Numbered from the stretch's first letter, positions 6,979-64,000 are shown. The stretch is DNA of 64,000 nucleotides from Methanobacteriota archaeon (GCA_016845365.1 JAERST010000001.1:79666-143665); one strand, 5' to 3'. A program made the numbers and translations. The notes: generated by a model from the letters alone, not told the origin.

Positions 6979-9900
6979 TTACATGTTTCTTCTGAATTTG
7001 CCACCGGTTTCGAATAGTGCTTGAGTCACTTGCCCAACCGAGCAATATTCGACGATATCCATCATTACTTCGAACAGATTTCCACCATCTCTTGCGACCT
7101 GCTTGAGCCGAGCAAGCCCTTCCTCAGCCTTTGCCGCGTGCTCGGCTCGGAATGCCTCATTGCGCTCGATGACCATCATTCGTTCAGCTTCATCCGAGCG
7201 CGTAACATCAACATCGAAAGCATCGGCTTCATCAGCCGATAGGCTCGCAGCATCCGGATTGATGAAGGTGTTAACACCGACGATCGGCAACTCCCCAGAG
7301 TGCTTTCGATGCTCGTAAACCATCGATTCATCCTGAATGCGGTTGCGTTGGTAATTCACTTCCAATGAGCCTAGCACACCGCCGCGTCGATGCATCTCCT
7401 CGAAGATGCGCAGAATTTCCTCCTCGACTTGGTCGGTCAACCAAGTCGAGAGATGCGAGCCTTGCATCGGATTCTCATTGGCGAGCAATCCGTATTCCTT
7501 TGAGAGAATCATCTGGATCGCCATCGAATCGCGCACCGTCTCCTCGGTAGGAGTCCCAAACGCCTCATCGCGCGAATTCGTATGCAATGAGTTGGCATTG
7601 TCAGCCAGCGCGTAGAGAGCCTGTAAAGTCGTCCTGTAATCGTTGAAAGTGAACTCCTGAGCGTGCAGACTTCGCCCACTCGATTGAATGTGATATTTCA
7701 GCTGTTGACCGCGATGCCCAACCCCGTAGATATCCCGCATCGCGATCGCCCAAATCCTGCGCGCGACACGACCAATCACAGCGTATTCAGGGTCCATTCC
7801 ATTGGAGAAAAACCAACTGAAATTGCGCAGGAATTTGTCAGGGTCGAGCCCACGGGCTCGGAACAATTCGACATAAGTCAGGCCGTTGCTCAGCGTCAGC
7901 GCAGCCTGCGTAATCGGGTTCGCACCGGCCTCTGCAATATGGTAGCCCGAGATCGAGACGAAGTAGTGGTTGCGGACGTTGTTTTGGACGTAGAATTCAG
8001 CGACATCACCCATCATTCTGAGGGCCGTGTCGAGGTTGAAAACCAGTGTGTTTTGCCCCATCGATTCCTTGAGTTGGTCTGCCTGAACCGTACCGCGTAC
8101 CGTGCTCAACGCCGTCGCCTTCAACTCCGCCTTCTCCGCATCGTTCGGGGGCCGTCCGTTCTGCTGCTCAAATTGTCGAATCTGCTGGCGGATTGCGACG
8201 TTGAAGAATGCCGCCAGGTGCCACCAATAATTTCCATTGATGGTTTTCGAGGTGGACGTGTTCGGGGCGCACAAGTCGAACCCTTCGAAGAGCAGGTCCA
8301 TCTCGTCTACCGTGCTAATCGATACGCCGGATTCGCAGACTTTTCCGAAGATATCGAGTCGGGTTTGGGGGTCTCTACCGTAGAGGGATGGTGAATCGAA
8401 GGCCGTGCTGAGTCGGTTGAATGGCTGGCCTTCGGAGAGGAAGTGAAATCGCTTGTTGGTGCGCTCGGCGCTGCCTTCTCCAGCGAACATTCTGATTGGG
8501 ATTTCATCCTCGCGCTTGAAGGGGAAGACTCCTGCCGTGAAGGGGAATGCGCCGGGGACATTTTCGGCGCGAATCCACGCCATTTTCTCTCCCCAGTCTT
8601 GGGTGTCGGGGAGTGCCACTCTGGGCATGTCGAGGCCGCTGAGCGTCTCGGTTGTGGTTTCTACCGGGATGTCCTTGCCTCGAACCGTGTAGGATGCCTG
8701 TCCTGAGCGGTAGGCTGCTGCGCGCTCGTCGAACTCTTTGAGCATCTCCCAGGCACTTGCCGGGACTCGCTTGCGGACTTCTTCGGCTTCTGCTGTGAGG
8801 TCTGCTGCCGAGGTGAGTCGGTTGGACTTGCGCATTTGCTGGGCTGCGGCTTCGAGTTGCTGGACGAGGCGCACGTTGCGGGATGCTTCTTGCGTGCGCG
8901 CGTGGTAATCTCTTACTGACGCTGCAACTTCTGCGAGGTAGCCTTGGCGCTCGGGCGGGATGGGTGCCGAGCGGTGTGGGAGACCGTCGGGGCCGAGTCG
9001 TGCTTCTGCTGCTTCGAATGCTTGGCCGTGTTGTTCGTTTAGCTGGGTTGCGAGCTTTTGCCAGAGTTGGTCGACTCCGGCGTCTGCGAATTGGCTCGCT
9101 ATCGTCGGGATGACTGGCAGGTCCTCGTTCTTGGCGTCCCACATCTCGCGGTTGCGCTTGAATTGCTTGCGGATTTCTGTGAGTGCGTCCTCGGCTCCGG
9201 GGCGGTCGAATTTGTTGAGGACGACGATGTCTGCGAAGTCGAGGGCGGCTAACTTCTCGAGTTGGCTTGGTGCTCCGTATTCCCTTGTCGTGACGTACAT
9301 CGATAGGTCGGCTACCTCGGTTATCGCGTCGTTGCCTTGGCCTATTCCGCTGGTTTCTACGAGGATGAGGTCGAAGCCTACCGCTTGGCAGGCTTCGATT
9401 GCGCGGTCGATGCAATCGGCTATCTCTCGACCGCTTGCTCGGCTTGCGAATGAGCGCATGAATAGGTTATCGTCGGCGAGGCTATTCATGCGGATTCTGT
9501 CGCCGAGCAGGGCCCCACCGGTTCGCTTTCTGGTTGGGTCAGTGGCGAGCAGTGCTACCTTTGCTCCTGGATTGTCGCGCTGGATTCTGAGCATTAGCTC
9601 GTCAGTGAGGCTGGATTTTCCTGCGCCTCCGGTGCCGGTTAGGCCGACGACTGGGCTGGCTTTGCTTTGCTCGACTGAGCGCACTCGCTTGAGGACGGTT
9701 CGGAAATGCTCGTCGTCGGCATTTTCGGCAAGGGTCAGCAACTTTGCAACCGCTCCGTGTTGGTCGGCTGAAACTGGTCCTGAAAGTGAATTGAAGCGAG
9801 CGGAGGCGAGCAGGTCTGTTCCGCTCGCTTCGGCGATGGCATCGCCAACCATCCCGGTCAAGCCCATCTCTCGCCCGTCATCGGGCGAGTAGATTCGGGC

Positions 9901-10284
9901 GATTCCATCGTCGCGTAACTTCTTGATTTCCCACGGCAGGATTGTCCCGCCACCGCCTCCGCAAAGGAATACGTGGTCGAATCCTGCCTCATCGAGGAGT
10001 TCCTTGGTGTGGGTGAACATCTCGACCGCGCCGCCTTGGTAGGATGTGATTGCAATCGCATGAGCATCCTCCTGAATCGCTGCCCGCGCCACCTCATCGG
10101 CGCCGCGGTCGTGGCCGAGGTGGATGACTTCGCAACCCATCGATTGGAAGATTCGCCGGAAGATTCCGATTGCAGCATCATGTCCGTCGAAGATCGCCGC
10201 TGCGGTCACAACCCGCAGCGGCGTGCTCGGCTCAGCCTCCGCCTTCTCTGAAGGCGAATCTGGGGCCTGAGCCTCGCTCACCAT
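6979..10284 (-). CDS. icmF: IcmF-type fused acyl-CoA mutase (B12-binding domain - MeaB-like GTPase - mutase TIM-barrel domain)
   Basis: 1101 aa. N-terminal B12 domain (AAIFDGHDAAIGIF...ITSYQGG), P-loop GLTGTGGAGKSSL plus NKFD of the MeaB/ArgK GTPase, and a C-terminal methylmalonyl-CoA-mutase-like catalytic domain. This domain order is diagnostic of IcmF rather than a split MCM. Confidence 0.8.
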   Translation of the reverse strand: MVSEAQAPDSPSEKAEAEPSTPLRVVTAAAIFDGHDAAIGIFRRIFQSMGCEVIHLGHDRGADEVARAAIQEDAHAIAITSYQGGAVEMFTHTKELLDEAGFDHVFLCGGGGGTILPWEIKKLRDDGIARIYSPDDGREMGLTGMVGDAIAEASGTDLLASARFNSLSGPVSADQHGAVAKLLTLAENADDEHFRTVLKRVRSVEQSKASPVVGLTGTGGAGKSSLTDELMLRIQRDNPGAKVALLATDPTRKRTGGALLGDRIRMNSLADDNLFMRSFASRASGREIADCIDRAIEACQAVGFDLILVETSGIGQGNDAITEVADLSMYVTTREYGAPSQLEKLAALDFADIVVLNKFDRPGAEDALTEIRKQFKRNREMWDAKNEDLPVIPTIASQFADAGVDQLWQKLATQLNEQHGQAFEAAEARLGPDGLPHRSAPIPPERQGYLAEVAASVRDYHARTQEASRNVRLVQQLEAAAQQMRKSNRLTSAADLTAEAEEVRKRVPASAWEMLKEFDERAAAYRSGQASYTVRGKDIPVETTTETLSGLDMPRVALPDTQDWGEKMAWIRAENVPGAFPFTAGVFPFKREDEIPIRMFAGEGSAERTNKRFHFLSEGQPFNRLSTAFDSPSLYGRDPQTRLDIFGKVCESGVSISTVDEMDLLFEGFDLCAPNTSTSKTINGNYWWHLAAFFNVAIRQQIRQFEQQNGRPPNDAEKAELKATALSTVRGTVQADQLKESMGQNTLVFNLDTALRMMGDVAEFYVQNNVRNHYFVSISGYHIAEAGANPITQAALTLSNGLTYVELFRARGLDPDKFLRNFSWFFSNGMDPEYAVIGRVARRIWAIAMRDIYGVGHRGQQLKYHIQSSGRSLHAQEFTFNDYRTTLQALYALADNANSLHTNSRDEAFGTPTEETVRDSMAIQMILSKEYGLLANENPMQGSHLSTWLTDQVEEEILRIFEEMHRRGGVLGSLEVNYQRNRIQDESMVYEHRKHSGELPIVGVNTFINPDAASLSADEADAFDVDVTRSDEAERMMVIERNEAFRAEHAAKAEEGLARLKQVARDGGNLFEVMMDIVEYCSVGQVTQALFETGGKFRRNM

Positions 10285-10328: not shown

Positions 10329-10961
10329 TCAATCGGTCCGTAGGACCGATTCCTCGTCGTATTTCTCGAGGAATGCGTCTGAAAGCAAATTTAGCCGATT
10401 CTCCAAAGCAGCATCTTTGTAACCCGATTCAGCCAACACATCCTCGGCATCCTTAATCTCTCGAAGATGATCCATTTGACTCCCCACTTTTTGGACGGTT
10501 TCAGACCAGCGGCCGTATAGTTCGGTATTCTCGTAGACCGTGGCGAAGAAAGCATCGAGAGTTTTTTTCTCTGCCAATTCAGAACTTGTTTTTACTTCAA
10601 AACAATTCAATTCTTCATTAATTCCGATATGAGAACCAAAAGTCCCAATCGCGTTCCGATCATTTAGCCGTTCCAAGGCTTGAGTCATCAATGGAGTATC
10701 CTCGTTCTCGATAGTCCACCGGGATCTCGAACTTACTAGAAAATCAGATTTATCATGAAATTTAACTTCCATTTCCCATTTTTCAAAATCATTTTCAAAG
10801 GGCGTAATAAACGCTTGATTTCTATTATCTACAAGAATATCCCAATTTCTTTTTCGTAATTGAGTAGCCAATGATTTGAACCCCCGAATCTCCCCAGATG
10901 CACCTGATTGAACCATTGTACCGCTAAGAAATTCAAACTCCTCTCTTTTGGGTCTTTCCAA
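10329..10961 (-). CDS. hypothetical protein (A+T-rich gene at the island edge)
   Basis: 210-aa ORF with no motif recognised. Composition clearly differs from the neighbouring icmF. Confidence 0.5.
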   Translation of the reverse strand: MERPKREEFEFLSGTMVQSGASGEIRGFKSLATQLRKRNWDILVDNRNQAFITPFENDFEKWEMEVKFHDKSDFLVSSRSRWTIENEDTPLMTQALERLNDRNAIGTFGSHIGINEELNCFEVKTSSELAEKKTLDAFFATVYENTELYGRWSETVQKVGSQMDHLREIKDAEDVLAESGYKDAALENRLNLLSDAFLEKYDEESVLRTD

Positions 10962-11200
10962 GACCCGTATCTCTTTTCACTTTCATTTTGAGTGGTTATA
11001 AAGACACAACAAGGGGGTTTCTGAGAGGGTCGAGAATTCGCAAATTCCTGTCACGACGGGCCGACGAGGGGCACAGACAGGGCGAAAACTCGTTCCTTCA
11101 TATACACTGGAAGTAGATGATAGGTTATGCTGCAGAGCACAGAGACGAAAACACACGCGTCGATTGGGATGCACGCATCGGTTGAAGACAAGGAGGTAGT

Positions 11201-11419
11201 TTGGTGAGCGAAGTCACAACAGACGTGATGATCGCCGACCGTACGGGCCATACCACCCTCCAACTCACCCAGCAGGAGACCCTTGACAGGGTCGCTGGGA
11301 TGGAGGGTGCCTGGGTCTTCGCAGGAGACAGGATGGTGCAGCCAGCTGAGCTGGCGAACACCGACTGGGGTACTGTGGGGACTGTCAGGGTGGTGCCTGG
11401 ACTAGTCGGTGGTAACTGA
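11201..11419 (+). CDS. ubiquitin-like / ThiS-MoaD-like beta-grasp protein ending ...VVPGLVGG-N
   Basis: 72 aa (TTG 11201 or GTG 11204 start). AGGAGG at 11191-11196. The C-terminal diglycine is followed by a single Asn and then the stop codon. An E1::JAB gene lies 110 nt downstream. Confidence 0.6.
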   Translation: MVSEVTTDVMIADRTGHTTLQLTQQETLDRVAGMEGAWVFAGDRMVQPAELANTDWGTVGTVRVVPGLVGGN

Positions 11420-11436
11420 CGGTCTTCAACCGATCC

Positions 11437-11499
11437 GGCGACTCTGTCGCCGCAGATCCACGTAAGGCGCCGCACAGTTGGAGCAATCCGACTGTGCGG
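11437..11499 (+). promoter_or_regulatory. two hairpins in the Ubl-E1 spacer
   Basis: ggcgac-tct-gtcgcc (11437-11451) and ccgcacag-N14-ctgtgcgg (11470-11499), followed by GGAGAGTGA and the ATG at 11530. Confidence 0.3.
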
Positions 11500-11529
11500 T
11501 TGCCGCGAAAACATAGGAGAGTGAATTGA

Positions 11530-12738
11530 ATGAGGTCATATGAACAGAATGCTTGGACAAAGGGTGAGATTGTAATTACGGTAATTGGAGCCGGTGGAAT
11601 TGGCTCAAATCTTGTGCCGCACCTCGCGCGCGCGTTGCGTTGTGGTGAGTTGATCGGCAAGGTCGGTCCGGTGAGATTGCGAGTTATCGATGGTGATTAT
11701 GTTGAGGAACGCAATCTTCAGCATCAGAATTTCACATCGGAAAATGTCGATTCTTACAAGACCGAATCAATCGTCAGACCTCTTTGGAATTGTCATCATA
11801 CCTTATTCACAATCGAATCGATTCCCGAAAATGTTCGAACTCCAACTTTCATCGCGACTTCTGACCTCGTCCTCGTCGCTGTAGATTCGATGGAAGTTCG
11901 TCGTCTGGTTCATCGGTACGCAGACACTTGGTTGGACTTGCGCTGCCAAGGCGATGGTTACATCGCTCTTGACCACAGAGTTGACCCTGTAATCGTCTCA
12001 AAGCTCACGCCGCTGAATGGGGAGTCGACCTCTTGCCAATTGCCAGGGGCTCTCAAGTCTGGCAACATTCAGTTCGGCCATCTTCTCGCGGGGGCTCATG
12101 GTGCGCAGTGGGTACTGCAGTATCTCCGCTACTTCGCTGGTGAGGTGAACGCTCAACCTCCTGCGCCGCAGACTGCGAACATTACCTTCGGAACGCTCGG
12201 TCGCTTCGAACTACACTCTCCAAACCTCGAACCTCGCACAGACGTTGAACCGCAGATTCACAGCGATGATTTGTTGGAGATATTTGTCGAATCGGAGGAG
12301 CATGATTCCGTACCGATTCGGGAGACTCTTACGGCTCACGCAGTGAGCCGCGATTACCAGAGTCTGTGGAACCTCGCGGACCGTCTGGGCCGCGAGGTCA
12401 GCATCCTCTTCGATGCTGACGACAAGGTGTGGGTTGATGTTGGTACAGCCGGACAAGTCCGGCTAGCTCCTCCAGAGGGTGCGCGGATTCCGTTCAAGTT
12501 GTGGATTCACACGCATCCGCGCGATGCATATTGGAGCGCCACAGACCAAGATTCATTGCTCAGATTCAGCGGAATCCTGCAAGAGGCTCTGGTCCTCGGC
12601 CATGACCATCTGAAGAGGGCGGTCCATCTTGCCGAGCCGACAGATGAGTGCATCGAGAAAGGCTCGGCACTCGAATTCTGGACTGACGAGGAAATCACAC
12701 TCTACAGTGAGATGGAGGTAGTCGCAGATGGATCCTGA
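11530..12738 (+). CDS. E1-like (ThiF/MoeB/UBA adenylation domain) fused to a C-terminal JAB/MPN+ (JAMM) metallopeptidase
   Basis: N-half has GAGGIGS (GxGxxG), IDGDYVEERNLQHQ (DxDxV...NLxxQ) and VAVDS. C-half has E289 (GREVSILF) and H327-T-H329-PRDAYW-S336-AT-D339 (nt 12508-12546). No CxxC zinc pairs of the MoeB/UbaA type. Confidence 0.75.
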   Translation: MRSYEQNAWTKGEIVITVIGAGGIGSNLVPHLARALRCGELIGKVGPVRLRVIDGDYVEERNLQHQNFTSENVDSYKTESIVRPLWNCHHTLFTIESIPENVRTPTFIATSDLVLVAVDSMEVRRLVHRYADTWLDLRCQGDGYIALDHRVDPVIVSKLTPLNGESTSCQLPGALKSGNIQFGHLLAGAHGAQWVLQYLRYFAGEVNAQPPAPQTANITFGTLGRFELHSPNLEPRTDVEPQIHSDDLLEIFVESEEHDSVPIRETLTAHAVSRDYQSLWNLADRLGREVSILFDADDKVWVDVGTAGQVRLAPPEGARIPFKLWIHTHPRDAYWSATDQDSLLRFSGILQEALVLGHDHLKRAVHLAEPTDECIEKGSALEFWTDEEITLYSEMEVVADGS

Positions 12739-12967
12739 GATCTCCGCAGCCATGCTCCGAGTCCAGCGAGCGCTGGACGCTCGAGAGCCGAATCAAGTCG
12801 GCTTGAAAATTCCAGCTTTGGTCAATGCGATCATCGATGAGGAAGCAGATGAGGAACTCATCGATCTTGTCCGGTCAGCCATGAGTTCAAAAGAGACGCC
12901 TGTCACTATGCCTGAGGTGATTGAAGGGGTCCTTGGTCTGGTCCGCTGGCGTCAGTCCGCGGCCTAA
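12728..12967 (+). CDS. small acidic helical protein, overlaps the E1::JAB stop by 11 nt
   Basis: 79 aa with no Cys. The overlap suggests translational coupling. A hairpin follows at 12985-13000. Confidence 0.45.
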   Translation: MDPEISAAMLRVQRALDAREPNQVGLKIPALVNAIIDEEADEELIDLVRSAMSSKETPVTMPEVIEGVLGLVRWRQSAA

Positions 12968-13000: not shown

Positions 13001-13172
13001 GAAAACCACCTGATGTGATGGGCAATACTGCCTACCATTATAGGCTAGTAGGGGGCCGGTGATAATCCGGCTCGGGGCAGGAACCTCTCGGAGCAGTTAT
13101 TTTTACCCCAATAATAAGACAAATCCGATATTTCCTGCAATTAGCCAACAAAAGAAATTAGAGGTCATTTAC

Positions 13173-14153
13173 ATGCCAAATTGCTATATTTGTAACAGTA
13201 TTGAAGTAAGAATCGAGAATGATTTGTTCATTTGTTCAGCCTGTGGGTTTGAACAGAATTTGAACTCAACAGAATCTGACTGGGAAAGCGGTCAACGAAT
13301 ACCGAACATCAATCAGTTGACCGCGGTAAATCCCAATCAACTTGGGGGGGCGAGAATCGATGCCAACCACCCCGACGCTCGGCGTAATAGAGTTCTTCGC
13401 CGCCTAATCAGAGCAGAACGAATTGCAGGCGATGGTCAATCCAAACGATTCCTCTCCGAGATACTCGATGAGGTGACTAAACTCGACCTTTCAATCGAGA
13501 TTAAGCAGCGAATCGTCAGGATGTTGCACGAGATAATCAGGTTGCATGGGAAAGGTCTGGGTTGGATTCGTCACCGACCACAGGGAGTGATGACCAAGGA
13601 GGAGTACGAATTGATGACGCGACGTGCATTCATATTGATAGCAATGCAGAAGCTAAACGAAATCGAAGTACCAATAAACGTGCTTCAATACGAGCAAGAA
13701 TGGCAGGTCGAGCCAATCTTCTTCAATCGTGTGAAGAAGGTTCTGGATAAGGCATTGAAATTGGCCGGGAACGGTGGCGCGGCACCCGAAAAGTGTGGAA
13801 TTCGCGAAGCCAATGAGAGGCGACGTCAACAACTCTTGAATCATTTGAACTCCTTGAGAGACTTGGTAGCAAAGCATCTCGGCCATTCGACCGCCAGCAG
13901 GGTTTACACTCAGTCCATTTCCTTACTCAAACAACTCGGCGAACCGATGGATGGTTCTGATTTTGAGAACCTCGGCGAGACTTGCAATATGAAGCCGACC
14001 AAGCTTATTCCCCAAGTCATTGATGCAGCAATGTACATCCTCAACATTCCTTCCCATGACATTCGTCAGGTACGCCGCGAACTCAATCTCCCGAACCGTC
14101 GAGTTCCAGATGCGATGAAGTGGCTGACATCTGCCGATGTAGAAGAAGAGTGA
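13173..14153 (+). CDS. divergent TFB/TFIIB-like protein (N-terminal zinc ribbon plus helical, cyclin-like body)
   Basis: Start placed at MPNCYICNS...FICSACGF (CxxC-x13-CxxC ribbon). At 326 aa it matches TFB length. Helical repeats such as LDLSIEIKQRIVRMLHEIIRLHGKG...AFILIAMQKLNEIEVPINVL resemble TFB cyclin-fold segments. Confidence 0.45.
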   Translation: MPNCYICNSIEVRIENDLFICSACGFEQNLNSTESDWESGQRIPNINQLTAVNPNQLGGARIDANHPDARRNRVLRRLIRAERIAGDGQSKRFLSEILDEVTKLDLSIEIKQRIVRMLHEIIRLHGKGLGWIRHRPQGVMTKEEYELMTRRAFILIAMQKLNEIEVPINVLQYEQEWQVEPIFFNRVKKVLDKALKLAGNGGAAPEKCGIREANERRRQQLLNHLNSLRDLVAKHLGHSTASRVYTQSISLLKQLGEPMDGSDFENLGETCNMKPTKLIPQVIDAAMYILNIPSHDIRQVRRELNLPNRRVPDAMKWLTSADVEEE

Positions 14154-14217
14154 ACCTCCTCTTCACGCCCTCGCGTTCTCGTAGACTCGCCGACCGGCCA
14201 CTAGCCGCGTTCGTGGT

Positions 14218-16125
14218 TCATTCGTCTAGAGGCCGGTTTAGGATCTCACCCAATTGTCCAACTCCTGGGTCCATGCGCTCAAAGTTGGCCCAAGCAGGAC
14301 CGGGCATCAGGCGCATCCTCTGTCTGATGGTAATCAGCGGTTCGAGTAACTCGCCGAATTGATGTACAAATTCACCTAAATCTCTCTGCGGGAATCTAAC
14401 TCGAGTGAACATGTCTCTCCTAGGTCGGCGTACGCCGTGTTCATTGACGTCCTCCACTCTCTCCCAACCAGCTGCTCGAAGCATAGTTTCACTGAGTTCA
14501 TGCTCCAATACGTTTCTAATCCTCAAGGTTGTGTCACATTCGGCAAATTCGATTCGGTACATATCATCACCCCTGCCATCAGCGAAAGCTAGTCTTGAGT
14601 TGAGAGGAAGGCGCAGAAGAACACTCCAAAATCGTGGGAAAATCACTGTAGCTCGAACTGCCATTCGTTCTGCCTGATTACGAGCTCGTATCTCTTCATC
14701 CAGCTCTTGGTCGTCCACTCTCGCTCGGTCCCGGTCTCTCCTCGCTCTATTCTCCACACGTTGGAAATTTTCATTCATAATCTGTCGAAGAACAGGCTGC
14801 AGAGTATCGATGTGAGCAGCGGAGCCGATATCATCGAGAAGACTGAGGATGACCGTACCAATCGCATCACCGAGGACTAAGGCTCGTAATTCATCAGTCT
14901 CTACTACGCAGAGGTGTTCTCGTGGGTGACTCGTTCGAGCGGAATGGCCATTGATTTCCCGTGGGCGAACTCTGAACCTACTCCCATGCGGGCCAGGACC
15001 TGGTGTAACGCTCCAGAGAACACCGGAAATGCCGCGTACCATGAATTGATTATTCTCTGAGTCAATTCGTACTTTCTCATTGTCGGTAATCGCACGAAGG
15101 AATTCGACGCCTCTCCGGTTCTCCTCATCCAAATGTAAGTCTGGAGGCGTCAGGAGACCATACTGCAAACATCGTAGGAATTGATGTTCGGGATGTGCGA
15201 CCGGTGAGAGTGCCCAGTTTAGTATCCTGGCGATCAGAATTGGGTCTGCAGGAAGTCTGCGAGTCATCCATTTCATTCCATTGCGCATTTTCAGCAATAA
15301 GCGTCCCTTCTTGATTGAGAAGCTGAGGCAAACAAGAGGCCTCCTTTCACCATAATTAGCATGTGAAATTGTCCCATCCCATCGTTTGAACCACTCGAGA
15401 TTCTCAATAAGGGAGCGGGGAATGCCGATTTCCATTCCTCGATTCATGCGGTTTAGGTAGGCTCTGTTAGGTTCTGTTCCCTCATCGAAGCGTGAAGGTT
15501 TGAGATAGAAGGTAACCGGATGATAAGAAATCTCTCTACCGTATTCCCCCTGCCTTCCTCTGAATTGTCGCAAACGCATCTGATTCGGAGAAAAACGCGA
15601 GGAAGCCACATTCATTGATACTAACAACGCCTTCCAATTGATTTGGTCAGCATCGTGGCGCTCTAGCATTTTCTCAAGTGTTAGGTATGGGACTGAGAGT
15701 GGAACTCCATCGAGCCAAAATTGATCATCGGCCCAAGTCAAGTAACTTCCATCTGGAAGAATGCCGCCACGTTGTAATCTCCTTCGCGCCGAAAAATCAT
15801 CCGAGAATATCCGTCCGCGCTCGATTTCAGCCTTCATCTCATCATCGAGCGCCCAAGGTTGAGGTGGATCGATTATCCAATGAGAGTCAGCAAGCTTCTG
15901 CGGATTGAGAACCCACCAGATATCGGTGCCTTCAGAGGAGTCGAGGGCAGACCAGAATTCACCCCTGTGGCCGCGCTCAAGTCGGATGCTAGCCGCGGCC
16001 TCATCCATCGAATTTTCATCGGGCATCAATTCCATCGAGCGCCCATGAAGGGCGGGAATGAGGATATGGCAAATATCACAGAAGGTATCTCCCGAGTCTA
16101 CTCCACAGCCTTTACACGAACTCAT
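14218..16125 (-). CDS. large Zn-knuckle protein, paralog A (635 aa), with a UBC-like H-P...C segment
   Basis: N-terminal CKGC-x9-CDIC-H. Internal TSHPREHLCVVETDELRALVLGDAIGTVILSLLDD (Cys406 codon at 14908-14910). Start overlaps the stop of the upstream paralog (ATGA at 16122-16125). Confidence 0.65.
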   Translation of the reverse strand: MSSCKGCGVDSGDTFCDICHILIPALHGRSMELMPDENSMDEAAASIRLERGHRGEFWSALDSSEGTDIWWVLNPQKLADSHWIIDPPQPWALDDEMKAEIERGRIFSDDFSARRRLQRGGILPDGSYLTWADDQFWLDGVPLSVPYLTLEKMLERHDADQINWKALLVSMNVASSRFSPNQMRLRQFRGRQGEYGREISYHPVTFYLKPSRFDEGTEPNRAYLNRMNRGMEIGIPRSLIENLEWFKRWDGTISHANYGERRPLVCLSFSIKKGRLLLKMRNGMKWMTRRLPADPILIARILNWALSPVAHPEHQFLRCLQYGLLTPPDLHLDEENRRGVEFLRAITDNEKVRIDSENNQFMVRGISGVLWSVTPGPGPHGSRFRVRPREINGHSARTSHPREHLCVVETDELRALVLGDAIGTVILSLLDDIGSAAHIDTLQPVLRQIMNENFQRVENRARRDRDRARVDDQELDEEIRARNQAERMAVRATVIFPRFWSVLLRLPLNSRLAFADGRGDDMYRIEFAECDTTLRIRNVLEHELSETMLRAAGWERVEDVNEHGVRRPRRDMFTRVRFPQRDLGEFVHQFGELLEPLITIRQRMRLMPGPAWANFERMDPGVGQLGEILNRPLDE

Positions 16126-17849
16126 CTTGCTTCCTCCAAGGCTTGGAGGTCGCCTCCGAATCTCTCGAATAATCGCTCGATTGCCTGCCGGAGATGTTCT
16201 TCGCTTTCATCCAATTCGCGTAGGTTTTCTTCCAACACATTTCGAGTAATTTCACGATTGTGTTCAACCACCTCTTCTCTCTCAAAATCGATATTATCCC
16301 AATCATAATCTTCCTCGTAATACTCATCTTCTTCGATCTCATCTTCATCCATCAAGAGCTCTTCATCGTCGGGGACTCCGTGGACATAATCGTCGACCAA
16401 ATGGTCCCACCAACACGGCGCTTCGACCCTCCTCTTCTGCCACCCCTTGTGCTTGCTCAGCAAATCCAGGAGGTGATGGAGAGTGATGATTCCCGTCTGA
16501 CTCTCGAGGTCGTTATGCAATGCCAAGAGATAGCTGGCGGCGACATCGCCGGTGGGGATGTCGTGTCCCGCTTGACTATCGATACAGATTTGCACGCCAC
16601 GTTCTATAGCATCTTCAAACATCGATTCGTGGGGAATCGCGTTGACGAGGAATTTCTTCGGGTCTGCTGTGGCAAGCAGAACATAGTGCAGACCGCTAGC
16701 CCCTTTGACTCGCAATCCGAGTTTGGTAGAGTCGACGCGCACTGGTTCCATCGAAGAGTGTTCACCGAGAGTCTCAACCGTCTTCTTGAGGAAGAGAACG
16801 GAATTCCGCTGACTCGAGGTTGGGACCCAGAATTCATCTTCTGAGTTCCAGCACCAAAACAAGTCATTCAACTTCTCAGAATGTTCTGTTCCTGGGGGCT
16901 CGAAGGTCCAAGCCATCAGCAAGCGCCAAACTCGAGGTTCGACCATCACAGGAATCGGGGTAGGCTTACCATCGACGAGCGCAAGTAGGCAAAAGCGCTC
17001 GTTGACAACGACGAGTTTGGGAGTGATGAAATGCCCAAGCAGGGTCACGATGGCGGCTTGACGGTCTTCTAGAATCTCCAGCCATGTTTCAGCAGCTCTG
17101 CCGCCTTGTTCCTCGATCAATTCGATATTTCCGTCAATCAATTCTCTGAGTGGTGCATCCCCACCGAGTTTATCTCTCTCGAGCAAGGTCAAAAATCGTA
17201 GGAATGGATGCATCAAATGTCTGACAGAGAAGTTGTCAGAGATTCCCATCATATGAGGCTCGACACCATGCCATGCATTGTGTCGGTACCACTCAGCCCA
17301 ATTGTCGATTGTCTCTGGATGGCAATCACGTAGGCAGCAAGACATCGCGAAGAGGAAATGTTTCCAATTTACAACCGACCCAACCCGAGCGGGATTTGAC
17401 ATCCATAGAGCGATGTCTCGCATCGGTAGTGGGCCCGGGAGTGTGATATCGTCAATCGAGATTTTGGAGTCGGCGCCAACTTTGAGAATGCTTCCTCCCG
17501 GCAGCGGCAGTCCGCCGTTACTGGTAATTCCGTGAAGGTTGAGAATCCGTCCGTACTGCCGCCACTGCTCAGCCGCTGCCTCGCTGAAATAAGGCGGTTG
17601 ACCACGCCGAGAGCGGAGAGCGCGAGGTAATTCGGAATCGATGGTCTCCGCCTCGGCGAGCATCATCAATCTCTGTTCATGAGTCAGCCCGCGGCCGGGT
17701 CTGAGAATCGCTTTCATTTCGGCTAAGTCGCCGGTCTGAGGGATATTTTGTTGGGACAATCCAGTGATTCCACGGGCAGTTAGGGAGCAGACCGCGCAGT
17801 CGTGAATGAAGTTAGAAGTAGCATGTCCACACCAGCAGAGATTAGGCAT
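16122..17849 (-). CDS. large Zn-knuckle protein, paralog B (575 aa), with a UBC-like segment and a hyper-acidic C-terminal region
   Basis: N-terminal CWC-x10-CAVC. Internal FLVNAIPHESMFEDAIERGVQICIDSQ...VAASYLLALHNDL (Cys422 codon at 16584-16586). Acidic DDEELLMDEDEIEEDEYYEEDYDWDNIDFEREE. Collinear similarity to the 635-aa protein. Confidence 0.65.
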   Translation of the reverse strand: MPNLCWCGHATSNFIHDCAVCSLTARGITGLSQQNIPQTGDLAEMKAILRPGRGLTHEQRLMMLAEAETIDSELPRALRSRRGQPPYFSEAAAEQWRQYGRILNLHGITSNGGLPLPGGSILKVGADSKISIDDITLPGPLPMRDIALWMSNPARVGSVVNWKHFLFAMSCCLRDCHPETIDNWAEWYRHNAWHGVEPHMMGISDNFSVRHLMHPFLRFLTLLERDKLGGDAPLRELIDGNIELIEEQGGRAAETWLEILEDRQAAIVTLLGHFITPKLVVVNERFCLLALVDGKPTPIPVMVEPRVWRLLMAWTFEPPGTEHSEKLNDLFWCWNSEDEFWVPTSSQRNSVLFLKKTVETLGEHSSMEPVRVDSTKLGLRVKGASGLHYVLLATADPKKFLVNAIPHESMFEDAIERGVQICIDSQAGHDIPTGDVAASYLLALHNDLESQTGIITLHHLLDLLSKHKGWQKRRVEAPCWWDHLVDDYVHGVPDDEELLMDEDEIEEDEYYEEDYDWDNIDFEREEVVEHNREITRNVLEENLRELDESEEHLRQAIERLFERFGGDLQALEEAR

Positions 17850-17975: not shown

Positions 17976-18440
17976 ATGGCCGATCCGACTGAGGCACACA
18001 TCTGCCCGCGCGATGGCTCCCCCCTCGTGCCTCCAGCAGAGTCGGATCGCTCGGCTTACATCCGCCACGGAATCCACCACTGCGACACGTGCGCGGGCAT
18101 GCTTCTCAATGCCGAGGCCGCCGAGGACGCCATCTGTGCAACCAAGCTCGAAGAGATGCACGAAGGCTTCACTGAAGAGGGAACGCCAGTCGACATCGAT
18201 TGCCCATTCTGCGATGCGCAGATGCGAGTCCGCAATTTTGCTTTCCAGCGCATCGATGGCAGCCTCACCGAGCCGATTGAAATCGACGGCTGCCCAAATT
18301 GCACATCGTTTTGGTTAGACGCGGGCGAACTCCACAGATTGTCACCGCCCGCGAACGGCGATCGCACAGCTCGCGTCGAGGCCAACGCGCTCGCCGTCGT
18401 CCTCGAAATTCTCTTCCAATTGCCAATCGTCCTACTCTGA
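17976..18440 (+). CDS. double zinc-ribbon protein (zf-TFIIB / PF13453-like)
   Basis: CPRDGSPL...HHCDTCAGMLL and CPFCDAQM...CPNCTSFWLDAGELHRL; the C..C-WLD-GEL pattern is typical of this family. Divergent from the giant-paralog operon. Confidence 0.6.
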   Translation: MADPTEAHICPRDGSPLVPPAESDRSAYIRHGIHHCDTCAGMLLNAEAAEDAICATKLEEMHEGFTEEGTPVDIDCPFCDAQMRVRNFAFQRIDGSLTEPIEIDGCPNCTSFWLDAGELHRLSPPANGDRTARVEANALAVVLEILFQLPIVLL

Positions 18441-18529: not shown

Positions 18530-19102
18530 TCAGAGAATTCCCGTCGCAAGAAGCGCAGCGAAGAAGAACATCAGCACACCCATCGCGCCATCAATCAAGT
18601 GAGCCCGCGCACGCAATTTGTCCACAGCCCCAGAATCCGAGAGCACGGTCGCAACACCGACATACCAAGTCCCATCGATTGCCAGCCCAAGAGCACCCAT
18701 CCCAACAAGGGTCTGAAAACTCGCCCCCGGCTCAATGAAAGGAGCATAAATCGCCATCATCCAAGCCAAAATCTTCGGATTGAACAGCGCGATCAAGAAT
18801 CCTTGAACAAAACCCGCCCGTTCAGCATGACCATGGCTCTCAGCAGACAATTCCGCCGGCGGACCAGCCCGCGCATGCCTCAGAAAAACAAACCCGAGAT
18901 AGATCAGAAGAAGCATCCCGCCCCAGCGAAGCACCTCCTCGGTGGCGGGATGAGCGGCAAGAGCAATCGACAGCCCAGCCGCAGTCGAGAAGGCGTAAAT
19001 CCCGAAACCAATCCCATGACCAATCCCAGTAGCAACACCCATCCGCTTACCGCCAGCCATGGTATTTCGAATCACCACAGCAACCGAAGGACCAGGAGAC
19101 AT
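18530..19102 (-). CDS. LysE/RhtB-family amino-acid exporter (true start probably upstream, see findings)
   Basis: SPGPS...GIGHGIGFGIYAFSTAAGL, typical of the LysE family, with multiple TM helices. Confidence 0.75.
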   Translation of the reverse strand: MSPGPSVAVVIRNTMAGGKRMGVATGIGHGIGFGIYAFSTAAGLSIALAAHPATEEVLRWGGMLLLIYLGFVFLRHARAGPPAELSAESHGHAERAGFVQGFLIALFNPKILAWMMAIYAPFIEPGASFQTLVGMGALGLAIDGTWYVGVATVLSDSGAVDKLRARAHLIDGAMGVLMFFFAALLATGIL

Positions 19103-36111: not shown

Positions 36112-36260
36112 GCCGGGGTGGCGTAGTTGGTAGCGCGTCGGACTCATAGGGTACAGTTGACGGGATTTTTCCTGTCGACGCGATCGATGAGCGCACAAGC
36201 CTAGCCGAGAATGTCTGAGACATCCGAAGGTCGCGGGTTCGAGTCCCGCTCCCGGCACCA
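36112..36260 (+). tRNA. tRNA with CAT anticodon (elongator Met or Ile2) carrying a 73-nt intron at 37/38; CCA encoded
   Basis: Manual fold: acceptor GCCGGGG/TCCCGGC, D-arm GCGT-AGTTGGTA-GCGC, anticodon stem TCGGA/TCCGA, loop CTCATA|intron 36149-36221|A, T-arm GCGGG-TTCGAGT-CCCGC, then ACCA. G1:C72 and a non-GGG anticodon stem argue against an initiator. Confidence 0.85.
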
Positions 36261-61793: not shown

Positions 61794-62579
61794 TCATCTG
61801 GAACTGTAATGCTGCTCATTAGCGATTTCCATCATCCCTGACATTAGTGCAGCAATATATTCCATCTCTGGCTCATAAACCACCCCAAGTCCACCGATTG
61901 GTAAAATAAATTCATCATCTATTACTACAGCAAGGGAGTTTGTCCCCATTGGGCCATCCATAGTGCAAACTCCTGTCATACTGGAATCGCCAATTCTCCA
62001 AGGAAGACCTCCATATTGCCAATGTCCTCTCCAAAAAACCCCTAAATTGGTAATCATTAGTCCATTTTTAGGAGCGAAAATAGCCGTTTTTTCATCTAAT
62101 ATAGCGAATACATCTGTTTCCTTAAACATACCATTTACGCGGAATCGGTCATTGGAAATCCCATTATTGAGTTTCTTTGCAGGAATATTAGGTGCTAGAT
62201 ATAGATTGCAATTCTTTACCGGCCTCTGTCCCATAAGGCTGACTTTAGGAAAATCTGGAGCAGTTGATAGCACAGTATTTACTGAATCATCAAAGACTAA
62301 TTCTTGAATATCTTCCTGCAAGAATAATTGATGATCAATGTCTTCACCATCTGGAGTAAGGAAAAATGTCCATTCTGAATATTTTGACAACATATGTTGA
62401 CCTAATTCATCTGGATCTTCGAATGGGTCTTGGAAATCTGCAACGGGACCTAATTCGAAAACAGCTTGGCATTGAGGACCTTGCATCACGTTAATGTAAT
62501 GATAGATTTGGTAGCTGAGTTTCATTAATTCTTCTTCACTTGGTTCATCCTCGCTCGGTGAATCCTCAGCAGCGACCAT
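61794..62579 (-). CDS. hypothetical protein in the A+T-rich terminal segment
   Basis: 261-aa ORF with an acidic N-terminus and no motif recognised. Confidence 0.45.
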   Translation of the reverse strand: MVAAEDSPSEDEPSEEELMKLSYQIYHYINVMQGPQCQAVFELGPVADFQDPFEDPDELGQHMLSKYSEWTFFLTPDGEDIDHQLFLQEDIQELVFDDSVNTVLSTAPDFPKVSLMGQRPVKNCNLYLAPNIPAKKLNNGISNDRFRVNGMFKETDVFAILDEKTAIFAPKNGLMITNLGVFWRGHWQYGGLPWRIGDSSMTGVCTMDGPMGTNSLAVVIDDEFILPIGGLGVVYEPEMEYIAALMSGMMEIANEQHYSSR

Positions 62580-62833
62580 ACCATGTGTTACTCATGGATA
62601 GAAATAAGGATGTTGCCGGCATCTAATTCTGATTGACATTTCAGACAATCACAATATAATCAATTATCAGACAAATCAATGGGTTTGCAGCCCGCCGTTT
62701 CACAGGGTACCCTTTAGATCGAGATAAATCGATGATAAATCAGAGGGTTTCTGGCAACATATTCCAAACCTATTGCATTGTATTGTAAGTAATTTTGGAG
62801 ATTATGATATGGTATTGCAACTGATGACTCCGC

Positions 62834-64000
62834 ATGGAATCAGTCATTAGAGGTGCTCGGAATGTCAAAAGAAAACCAGTTAGAAGCATCGGAGTAATCA
62901 TAATCATCGGATTTTCACTCGCGATTTTCCTGACATCGAGCATCGTTGCATCAAGCATTGAGGCACAAGCAGCAGCTCTGGAAGATAGCCTCGGTAGGAA
63001 GGTAATTATCACCAGTTCGGACGCGAGTTTCGACAGTTCTGCTTCAATTGACGAAGATATTCTCAGCCTTACCAATAACATAAGTGCGATTGAATCCGTT
63101 CAAACATTTGTAACGGATATCGATAGGTCCGGAATTAATGATCTTCTTGCTCAAGGAGGTCCTCCTAATCCAGAGGCCCTACGAGCAGCGGTTAGGTTCA
63201 TTTCTGGCCAGAACCTAAGTTCGGAGTTGGAAGGATTTGTTTCTGAAGAGTTGGTTTTAGTAAATGGCAGAATGCTCAATGATTCTGATGCCGGTTTGAA
63301 CAACGTATTGTTAGGAGTAGATAGCGCTCTCGCAAATGGGATTTTAGTAGGCGACTCTATTCAACTGAATGGTATTTCTCTAAATGTAGTCGGCTTAGTT
63401 TCTGGAGATGTTTTTCAGACAAACGCTACAATTTTGATGAGTGTCGAAATGGCACAAATAATTACAGAAACATCAGGATTTGACAAGGTCGTTGTGACAA
63501 TTGAATCAATAGAATTGGTCGATGATGTGATGAATATTTTGCAATCTGAATATGGTGATGAGTTGACAATTCAGACTGCATCGGAACAGGAGGGAGATGA
63601 TATCGCTCAATCAATTGATACGATTGGTGGAAACGCAGATTTAGGCGCGATGGCTGCCCTTTTTGCCTCTATGTTAGTTGTAGGTTTCATAATGGTAATC
63701 ATTACCAAAGAAAGGGTAAATGAAATTGGTGTTCTGAAAGCCATTGGCCTACCTAATACTAAAATTGTGACACAGTTTTTGAGTGAGTCAATTTTCATGG
63801 CCTCATTAGGATTTTTAGTTTGTATTGTAATAACTTTAGTGGCAGGTCCAATGATGCAAACGATGCTAATTGAATCTAGTTCTGATAATTCATCATCAAG
63901 TGAACAGGGATCAAGTCCGCAGTTCTCACCTGGTCAAATCCTCAACCCAACACCTGAATCATCATCAATGGATTCAATCACTTCGTTGGAGTTCTCTGTG
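62834..64000 (+). CDS. FtsX/MacB-like ABC transporter permease, 3'-truncated by the window end
   Basis: Not in the ORF track because no stop falls in the window. I translated it by hand from ATG 62834 with no stop through 64000. It has an N-terminal TM helix (SIGVIIIIGFSLAIFL), a large extracytoplasmic domain, then the FtsX core ERVNEIGVLKAIGLPNTKIVTQFLSESIFMA. Confidence 0.7.
   Translation, partial: MESVIRGARNVKRKPVRSIGVIIIIGFSLAIFLTSSIVASSIEAQAAALEDSLGRKVIITSSDASFDSSASIDEDILSLTNNISAIESVQTFVTDIDRSGINDLLAQGGPPNPEALRAAVRFISGQNLSSELEGFVSEELVLVNGRMLNDSDAGLNNVLLGVDSALANGILVGDSIQLNGISLNVVGLVSGDVFQTNATILMSVEMAQIITETSGFDKVVVTIESIELVDDVMNILQSEYGDELTIQTASEQEGDDIAQSIDTIGGNADLGAMAALFASMLVVGFIMVIITKERVNEIGVLKAIGLPNTKIVTQFLSESIFMASLGFLVCIVITLVAGPMMQTMLIESSSDNSSSSEQGSSPQFSPGQILNPTPESSSMDSITSLEFSV

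Follow-up and report, generated by a model that had tools for sequence, protein, structure and literature searches.

A coupled paralog pair with an invariant cysteine and a possible E2-like role in a ubiquitin-like protein cassette of Marine Group II archaea

Introduction

Operons that combine a ubiquitin-like protein (Ubl) with an activating enzyme (E1), a JAB peptidase, and a diverged conjugating enzyme (E2) are already known from bacteria and from a few archaea. The Caldiarchaeum subterraneum-type operon encodes ubiquitin, an E1, an E2, a small RING ligase (E3), and Rpn11. Among the bacterial systems, type I Bub carries a fusion of JAB and E1 (BubCD), and the diverged E2s of Bub and Bil are hard to recognize and have been proposed to recognize their targets directly (PMC11601596). 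Bub and Bil operons encode no E3 and are accompanied by transcription regulators (PMC11601596, PMC10557695), and in Bil the JAB peptidase pre-processes the Ubl precursor (PMC10557695). Here we describe a cassette in a 64,000-nucleotide stretch of a Methanobacteriota archaeon genome (GCA_016845365.1, JAERST010000001.1, positions 79666 to 143665; hereafter the window), in which genes for a Ubl precursor, an E1::JAB fusion, and a TFIIB-like zinc-ribbon protein lie beside two large genes, A and B, whose products are the subject of this study. The host is a Marine Group II archaeon (Poseidoniales), from a group that ranks with the most abundant archaea in surface ocean waters. We find that A and B are a translationally coupled, fast-evolving paralog pair belonging to a previously undescribed archaeal superfamily, and we weigh the possibility that they supply the E2 function of the cassette.

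Results

The pair lies on the minus strand, where gene B (16122..17849; 575 aa) is the first gene and gene A (14218..16125; 635 aa) follows it, the TGA of B and the ATG of A overlapping as ATGA at 16122-16125. An identical 4-nt overlap is called in two relatives (loci L001 and L003; such labels denote loci of superfamily members throughout). Pairwise BLASTP aligns the two proteins over 110 aa (25% identity, E = 2e-4), a match that covers exactly the Cys region discussed below, and a profile-profile comparison with hhalign of 22 A orthologues (alignment A1) and 17 B orthologues (alignment A2) recovered 414 aligned columns spanning A 10-454 and B 6-461 (probability 99.4%, E = 4.4e-21); A and B are therefore collinear across about 75% of their length. 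The initial annotation had read the 575-aa and 635-aa open reading frames (ORFs) as collinear, translationally coupled paralogs, and these comparisons bear that out at the level of sequence: the two are true paralogs. A search for a third paralog within the window found none. Homologues fall into 33 clusters for A and 23 for B, and a Pfam domain is absent from all 23 of the B clusters.

Three parts are conserved in each protein: an N-terminal Cys4 knuckle, an LP(D)G beta-hairpin module, and a core domain of about 125 residues. The knuckle, a predicted single-zinc site, reads CKGC-x8-CDIC in A (residues 4-19; 16069..16116, minus strand) and CWC-x8-H-x-CAVC in B (residues 5-21; 17787..17837, minus strand). 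C4, C7, C16, and C19 are nearly invariant in A orthologues, and C5, C7, H16, C18, and C21 are invariant in those of B, the four-Cys cluster first noticed at both N termini being kept in both alignments. The cores (A residues 334-458, 14752..15126; B residues 345-470, 16440..16817; both on the minus strand) are homologous to each other by hhalign; that of A is modeled as a helix, four strands, a Cys loop, and helices, and that of B shows a like order of elements in a low-confidence model. Each contains a single internal Cys in a matching context, as had been seen in the two sequences, and orthologue alignments show C406 of A (nt 14908-14910) and C422 of B (nt 16584-16586) to be invariant throughout their families and across at least four subfamilies. 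The extreme acidic and aromatic stretch picked out earlier in the 575-aa protein is also real (residues 493-526, PDDEELLMDEDEIEEDEYYEEDYDWDNIDFEREE; 16272..16373, minus strand), and its composition is kept among orthologues. The HPN-like element that had been suggested before the Cys fared worse, since the "HP" upstream of it in A (SHPREHLC) varies among orthologues, in a loop that is variable in both length and sequence. The IPHES of B has an invariant P, yet no counterpart in A.

An exhaustive profile search (E <= 1e-3) expanded this group to a superfamily of 165 representatives, which includes family C (about 430 aa) and family D (750 to 850 aa). Only four columns are invariant in a 37-sequence alignment across all groups (G45, C86, D100, and D112), and the superfamily signature can be written G-x-SG ... 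h-C-h ... LPxGD ... LLxD. The aligned Cys is invariant in families A, B, C, and D and in a protein of the type 2 cassette described below, and it remains so across 37 to 87 superfamily representatives. Scans of A, B, and families C and D gave no Pfam match for any member, and the superfamily is a conserved orphan that no entry in Pfam, NCBIfam, or PADLOC describes. A scan of IMG/VR viral contigs found no relatives, so nothing points to a viral origin.

Their place in a conserved cassette with Ubl and E1 genes makes A and B candidates for its missing conjugating enzymes; scans with Pfam, PADLOC, and NCBIfam found no canonical E2 in the cassette. An AlphaFold2 model of A built from a 22-sequence alignment has a mean predicted local distance difference test score (pLDDT) of 75.9, rising to 80-90 in the core, where it places a helix at 334-347, strands at 352-355, 360-364, 369-375, and 384-391, a loop containing C406, helices at 411-414 and 418-430, and more helices thereafter. 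C406 lies 15 residues past strand 4 and 12 before helix 418-430, positions that come from the model only. The order of these elements and their spacings match those of the ubiquitin-conjugating (UBC) domain of UbcH5, with the Cys at the catalytic position. In A, then, a conserved Cys sits in the loop that joins strand 4 to the crossover helix, a location given by the model only. When the full A model was searched against the PDB with Foldseek, 42 of the 50 best matches were UBC E2 or ubiquitin E2 variant (UEV) chains, all of them non-significant; Mms2, UBE2G2, UBE2A, UBE2S, UbcH5, and VPS37A-UEVL were among those matched, with alignments of 72 to 161 columns. Giant-virus E2s appeared among weak matches in BFVD, none significant.

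Several results weigh against an E2-like core in A and B. Nothing in the Foldseek search of A against the PDB fell below E = 0.001, the best E2 match being at E = 1.4, and the matches ranged over E values of 1.4 to 4.6, template modeling (TM) scores to the target of 0.23 to 0.37, and root mean square deviations of 5 to 9 Å. The A model contains a second helix and four-strand segment at residues 244-323, so the Foldseek matches could map there, the output omitting the aligned query residues. B is poorly modeled (pLDDT 54.8), and for this reason its Foldseek search returned noise that included only a few E2s. An hhalign comparison of the core with eight eukaryotic E2 sequences gave probabilities of 0.2 to 0.5%, which are not significant; family-specific alignments and an 87-sequence superfamily alignment gave the same outcome, with short or greedy alignments that placed Cys on Cys and crossover helix on crossover helix. 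The core profile recovered no E2, UEV, or RWD family from PDB sequences and Pfam (E <= 10), and we obtained no sequence or profile match to UQ_con or another E2, UEV, or RWD model. An HPN motif some 7 to 10 residues before the Cys is absent, the "HP" of A being unconserved. As to the modifier itself, the Ubl has no match in Pfam or among PDB sequences, including ThiS/MoaD models, so we infer its beta-grasp fold from its size, C terminus, and context. Finally, four loci of distant superfamily members (L040, L042, L043, and L044) have no E1, JAB, or Ubl gene within up to 10 kb, and three of these (L042 to L044, with family D and a distant A/B-like pair) adjoin a TFIIB-like zinc-ribbon gene. Matches of the core profile to penton protein, Cry toxins, and RS4NT in the PDB and Pfam were at chance level. 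A Cys-protease reading is less likely, since conservation of H380 extends over A, C, and D but stops short of B, and the predicted fold does not resemble that of papain.

The missing HPN motif weakens membership among canonical E2s rather than an E2-like function, because there are non-canonical E2s without other defining features: BubB of the Bub system lacks the catalytic Cys, and BubB and Cap2 lack the C-terminal helix pair (PMC11601596). BubB, its Cys replaced by Ser, superposes on UBE2D2 at 3.8 Å over 104 residues (PMC11601596), and bacterial cases such as this indicate that genuine E2s can be as diverged as the A/B core. The UBC-like segments proposed in the initial annotation thus stand in part. 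The Cys is invariant, the element order of the A model is UBC-like, and the AlphaFold and Foldseek check left the A segment not plainly non-UBC, with E2 and UEV chains dominating its matches; what did not emerge is any significant fold or sequence match, a conserved HP, or a reliable model of B. We lean slightly toward a UBC/UEV-like fold for the A/B core, and we place a catalytic E2-like role for it just short of even odds. Our preferred reading takes A and B as a new pair of E2-like proteins, possibly E2/E3 hybrids, and to it we assign a probability of roughly 45%. By sequence, the two belong neither to the canonical E2s nor to any curated bacterial system.

The alternative that survives best, although we judge it unlikely, is that A and B are not catalytic but act as scaffolds, UEV-like Ubl-binding adaptors, or dedicated substrates, with a structural or regulatory Cys and an E1 that conjugates directly as in SAMP/UbaA. 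The insignificance of the E2 similarity and the absence of the HPN motif are what such proteins would show, and UEV-type folds (Mms2, UEV1, and VPS37A) are among the best Foldseek matches; the Cys, however, belongs to just four positions that do not vary among sequences sharing <20% identity, it lies in a predicted loop that has no conserved Cys or His metal partners, and a purely structural role rarely yields such exclusivity. Fast evolution is typical of adaptors or targets, and E2-independent Ubl conjugation is established in archaea for the SAMPs (PMC2948915, PMC4895103), but the E1 encoded here falls far under the UbaA equivalog cut-off (23 versus 450 bits).

The cassette is bordered by icmF on the left (6979-10284) and lysE on the right (18530-19102). 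Its Ubl precursor (11201..11419, plus strand) is 72 aa long and ends PGLVGG-N, and a C terminus of PG[LI]xGG plus one or two extra residues is invariant among the seven relatives compared. A 129-aa ORF runs antisense to the Ubl gene (11125-11514, minus strand) and is probably spurious, given how highly the Ubl frame on the opposite strand is conserved. The E1::JAB fusion (11530..12738, plus strand; 402 aa) joins a ThiF-type adenylation domain to a C-terminal JAB/JAMM peptidase. Pfam ThiF matches residues 16-131 (5.6e-14), and in profile searches of the PDB residues 10-130 matched MccB, UBA6, NAE, and Uba4 while residues 324-371 gave weak matches to Rpn11-like proteins and AMSH-LP (E = 0.014 to 0.04), with CsRpn11 (6fjv) at E = 0.014. 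The JAMM motif is invariant (E289, H327-x-H329, S336, and D339), as are C139 and C169. Only profiles gave such matches; phmmer searches of the PDB with E1::JAB and with the zinc-ribbon protein returned nothing. The adjoining Ubl/E1::JAB pair noted at the outset is thus confirmed by its ThiF domain, JAMM motif, and GG-ended Ubl, and a GG-ended Ubl, a ThiF-type E1, and a JAB domain are what characterize a prokaryotic Ubl-E1-E2-JAB operon.

Downstream of the fusion, a 79-aa helical protein (p79; 12728..12967, plus strand) has a start that overlaps the E1::JAB stop by 11 nt, and in the loci of relatives it always lies between E1::JAB and the zinc-ribbon gene. The TFIIB-like zinc-ribbon protein (13173..14153, plus strand) is about 326 aa from its conserved Met, in an ORF that opens at 13059, and its gene is convergent with A. 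As a profile against the PDB, its N terminus matched Brf2/TFIIIB50 (E = 0.0013) and the Pyrococcus furiosus TFIIB Zn ribbon (E = 0.0045), and its relative in L044 matches Pfam Zn_Ribbon_TF (2.7e-9). Two further genes may belong to the cassette. One encodes a conserved 210-aa protein (p210; 10329..10961, minus strand) and is divergent from the Ubl gene; a gene for 187 to 200 aa occupies the same site in L001, L003, L004, and L038 (53% identity to the L001 copy), and scans of Pfam, PADLOC, and NCBIfam gave p210 no family match. The other, divergent from B, encodes a 154-aa double zinc-ribbon protein (17976..18440, plus strand; PF13453 Zn_ribbon_TFIIB, 4.1e-10), with an equivalent gene in L003 and L004 and an ORF of like size and position in L038.

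A profile scan of species-representative genomes with the A alignment identified 32 loci, nearly all of them in Candidatus Poseidoniales/Thalassarchaeaceae. Four cassette contigs (L014, L020, L021, and L025) come from metagenome-assembled genomes (MAGs) labeled Acidiferrobacter, Verrucomicrobia, and Acidimicrobiaceae and are probably mis-binned Marine Group II. In the window itself, a 146-nt Rfam tRNA match (36112-36257, plus strand; 56.9 bits) unseen by ARAGORN is probably an intron-containing archaeal tRNA, which fits an archaeal origin. Gene order is constant in all relatives' contigs retrieved by exact protein match, over A identities from 48% down to 28%, and a hidden Markov model sweep over the six-frame ORFs of all loci found p79 and E1/JAB wherever 3 kb or more of sequence follows A, and Ubl where the flank allows. 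In Marine Group II archaea the cassette keeps its place between icmF and lysE, and it comes in two types, the first being the arrangement of the window. In type 2, exemplified by a Poseidoniales single-cell genome (L027, 9917-16917), A occurs without B upstream and E1 and JAB are separate (JAB, 13708-14205; E1, 14202-14906), followed by a Cys-domain protein of 404 aa (14887-16101) and a tandem of two Ubl ORFs. The 404-aa protein, encoded between E1 and Ubl, has a CxxC-x10-CxxC knuckle and the motif DYLCIDPGEDFGLWPGDSVAALLMCLHDD, and it matches the core profile (E = 4.9e-6). It is a superfamily member, and both cassette types therefore encode two members, in keeping with a heteromeric pair. Both types seem to be present together in some MAGs.

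Beyond the cassettes, the family C locus L040 stands alone amid housekeeping genes. The distant Cys-domain loci beside a TFIIB-like zinc-ribbon gene (L044, 8194-14557; L043, 1759-6267; L042, 514-4741) encode either a pair of 572 and 667 aa or single proteins of 794 to 845 aa, with a protein of about 300 aa in between that has a predicted signal peptide and a thioredoxin-like WCxNC motif; these three loci also have no p79 within up to 10 kb. The association of Cys-domain proteins with zinc-ribbon proteins is therefore wider than that with Ubl and E1, and the co-occurrence with Ubl/E1 genes that had been expected is strict in Poseidoniales cassettes but does not extend to the distant members, which have no E1, JAB, or Ubl gene within the 10 kb or less in view. 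One may accordingly ask whether the true partnership is between the Cys-domain proteins and the TFIIB-like protein, as a transcription-linked regulatory or conflict module to which Ubl and E1::JAB were a secondary addition in Poseidoniales, A and B then not being their E2. We consider this decidedly unlikely. The zinc-ribbon protein is always convergent with A and matches TFIIB/Brf N-terminal ribbons, and L042, L043, and L044 pair it with Cys-domain proteins where E1, JAB, Ubl, and p79 are missing, but the flanks viewed there reach 10 kb at most and E1 and Ubl could lie elsewhere in those genomes. Family C, moreover, is found without the zinc-ribbon protein too, and the Ubl/E1 linkage holds in both Poseidoniales cassette types.

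The genes of the cassette and of its flanks diverge at very different rates. Relative to L001, identity is 91% for IcmF, 92% for an acyl-CoA synthetase, 83% for LysE, and 84% for the Ubl, falling to 68% for E1::JAB, 57% for p79, 53% for p210, 48% for A, 47% for B, and 32% for the TFIIB-like zinc-ribbon protein (ZnR), and the ranking is the same against L003, L007, and L038. A conserved modifier together with fast-diverging putative specificity parts at a fixed locus is a pattern typical of conflict systems, and it has a parallel in Bil and Bub. That A, B, and ZnR have changed so much faster than the genes around them suggests a role in conflict, possibly an antiviral one. The G+C content of the cassette (50 to 52%) is lower than that of most of its surroundings, although the segments directly on either side reach only 52 to 56%. 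At the far end of the window (62001-64000) the G+C fraction falls to 0.40, against 0.50 to 0.60 elsewhere. A scan for bacterial promoters and terminators was at chance level and has no bearing on an archaeon.

Discussion

If A and B are an E2-like pair, the cassette can be read as a stepwise conjugation pathway. By analogy with Bil and Caldiarchaeum Rpn11, the JAB domain would trim the residue after the Ubl Gly-Gly, and the ThiF-type domain, itself evident from the sequence, would adenylate the Ubl. The Ubl might then be handed as a thioester to C406, C422, or both in an A-B complex that would serve as an E2 or a hybrid of E2 and E3 and would select targets through its variable flanking domains, and the TFIIB-like protein could be a regulator of the cassette or a substrate. 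In its boldest form, this proposal holds that Marine Group II archaea carry an unrecognized Ubl conjugation machine in a hypervariable island, in which a fast-evolving pair of about 600 aa each, with a cryptic UBC-like Cys domain, is a combined E2/E3 controlled by or aimed at a TFIIB-like factor; the whole would be an archaeal counterpart of the Bil and Bub antiviral Ubl systems, and the Cys domain a new, sequence-orphan branch of E2s. Taken together, that set of claims is rather unlikely.

JAB peptidases also trim sulfur carriers, as in QbsE/QbsD and CysO/Mec+. A sulfur-carrier pathway here, in which the E1 makes a Ubl thiocarboxylate, JAB trims the carrier, and the Cys of A and B carries a persulfide, is very improbable: the best named E1 matches are ThiF/MoeB-type adenylyltransferases and L001 and L002 carry a rhodanese gene about 1.4 kb away from where gene B starts, but that rhodanese gene is absent from the region in the window and in L004, no cassette examined contains ThiG, MoaE, CysM, or a tRNA thiolase, the Ubl matches no ThiS/MoaD model, and metabolism would poorly account for a TFIIB-like protein, duplicated cassettes, and rapid divergence.

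Neither the curated families nor the papers that we searched hold a match to the candidate E2s, the Ubl, p79, or the TFIIB-like partner. In full-text literature searches, no paper connected a ThiF/JAMM/Ubl cassette with Poseidoniales or Marine Group II; Grau-Bove et al. report RING and UCH domains in one Marine Group II single-cell genome, which are not these cassette genes (PMC4327156). Should the E2-like reading prove true, it would add a sequence-orphan branch to the E2 superfamily, mean that an uncultured archaeal order that is dominant in its ecosystem has a dedicated conjugation system, and bear on the pre-eukaryotic rise of E1-E2(-E3) cascades. The contrast between a conserved modifier and very fast-evolving A, B, and ZnR, within flanks that are 91% identical, also makes the locus a testable case of an archaeal conflict system. 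If A and B are not E2s, what is left is a conserved but uncharacterized superfamily, with one invariant Cys, that deserves further study.

Set beside canonical E2 and UEV proteins (UQ_con; UBE2D2 and Ubc13-Mms2), the A core resembles them in its predicted element order and spacings, E2 and UEV chains lead the weak Foldseek matches of A, and the A/B pair recalls Ubc13-Mms2, with a Ubl and an E1 as genomic company. It differs in having no sequence or profile similarity to them, no HPN motif, and TM scores to the target of at most 0.37, and in a core that is embedded in proteins of 575 to 635 aa with a zinc knuckle and other domains. Unlike UEVs, which have lost the Cys, both A and B keep it.

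The nearest bacterial parallels are Bub (6E/DUF6527), Bil, and CBASS Cap2/Cap3, whose operon logic of Ubl, E1, JAB, and a diverged E2 is shared by the Marine Group II cassette, with A and B as the candidate E2s. As in Bub and Bil, no E3 is encoded, and the company of transcription regulators in those operons is paralleled by the TFIIB-like protein; the E1 domain, in turn, weakly matches PADLOC Cap2 "E1-E2" models (E = 1.8e-5). In contrast to these systems, the host is an archaeon, the cassette occupies a fixed chromosomal locus across an order rather than occurring sporadically, and the candidate E2 is four times larger and a paralogous pair. The fusion order, E1 and then JAB, differs from that of Bub, and the DUF6527 protease of Bub and the CD-NTase of CBASS are missing. 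PADLOC and NCBIfam scans of A and B, of the Ubl and p79, and of the zinc-ribbon protein yielded nothing but a sub-threshold, chance-level PADLOC match of B (REase_II, E = 0.0067, 14 bits, 20 residues), and the curated models of named systems (PADLOC; 6A-MBL and PRTRC in NCBIfam) do not claim the cassette, only the E1 giving sub-threshold scores (PRTRC_ThiF, 52.9 bits versus a cut-off of 144.75; 6A-MBL cap2_3, 20 versus 320 bits).

Among archaea, the Caldiarchaeum operon shares with the cassette a GG-ended modifier whose C terminus has to be processed by a JAMM peptidase, and CsRpn11 is weakly matched here; the cassette differs in having no recognizable UQ_con E2, no RING protein, a short ThiF-type E1 fused to JAB, and a Ubl with no sequence match to ubiquitin. 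The Haloferax SAMP/UbaA/HvJAMM1 system likewise consists of an archaeal GG-ended Ubl, a ThiF/MoeB-type E1, and a JAMM deconjugase. The transcription factor TBP2 is a known SAMP target (PMC4895103), a parallel to the TFIIB-like gene. The cassette scores outside that system (SAMPActivE1UbaA, 23.2 bits against a cut-off of 450; no ThiS/MoaD match of the Ubl in Pfam), and whereas SAMPs have no E2-like partner and their genes are dispersed, two dedicated Cys proteins are linked to the modifier here. The Marine Group II cassette is best regarded as a novel version of the prokaryotic Ubl-conjugation operons, built from orphan protein families.

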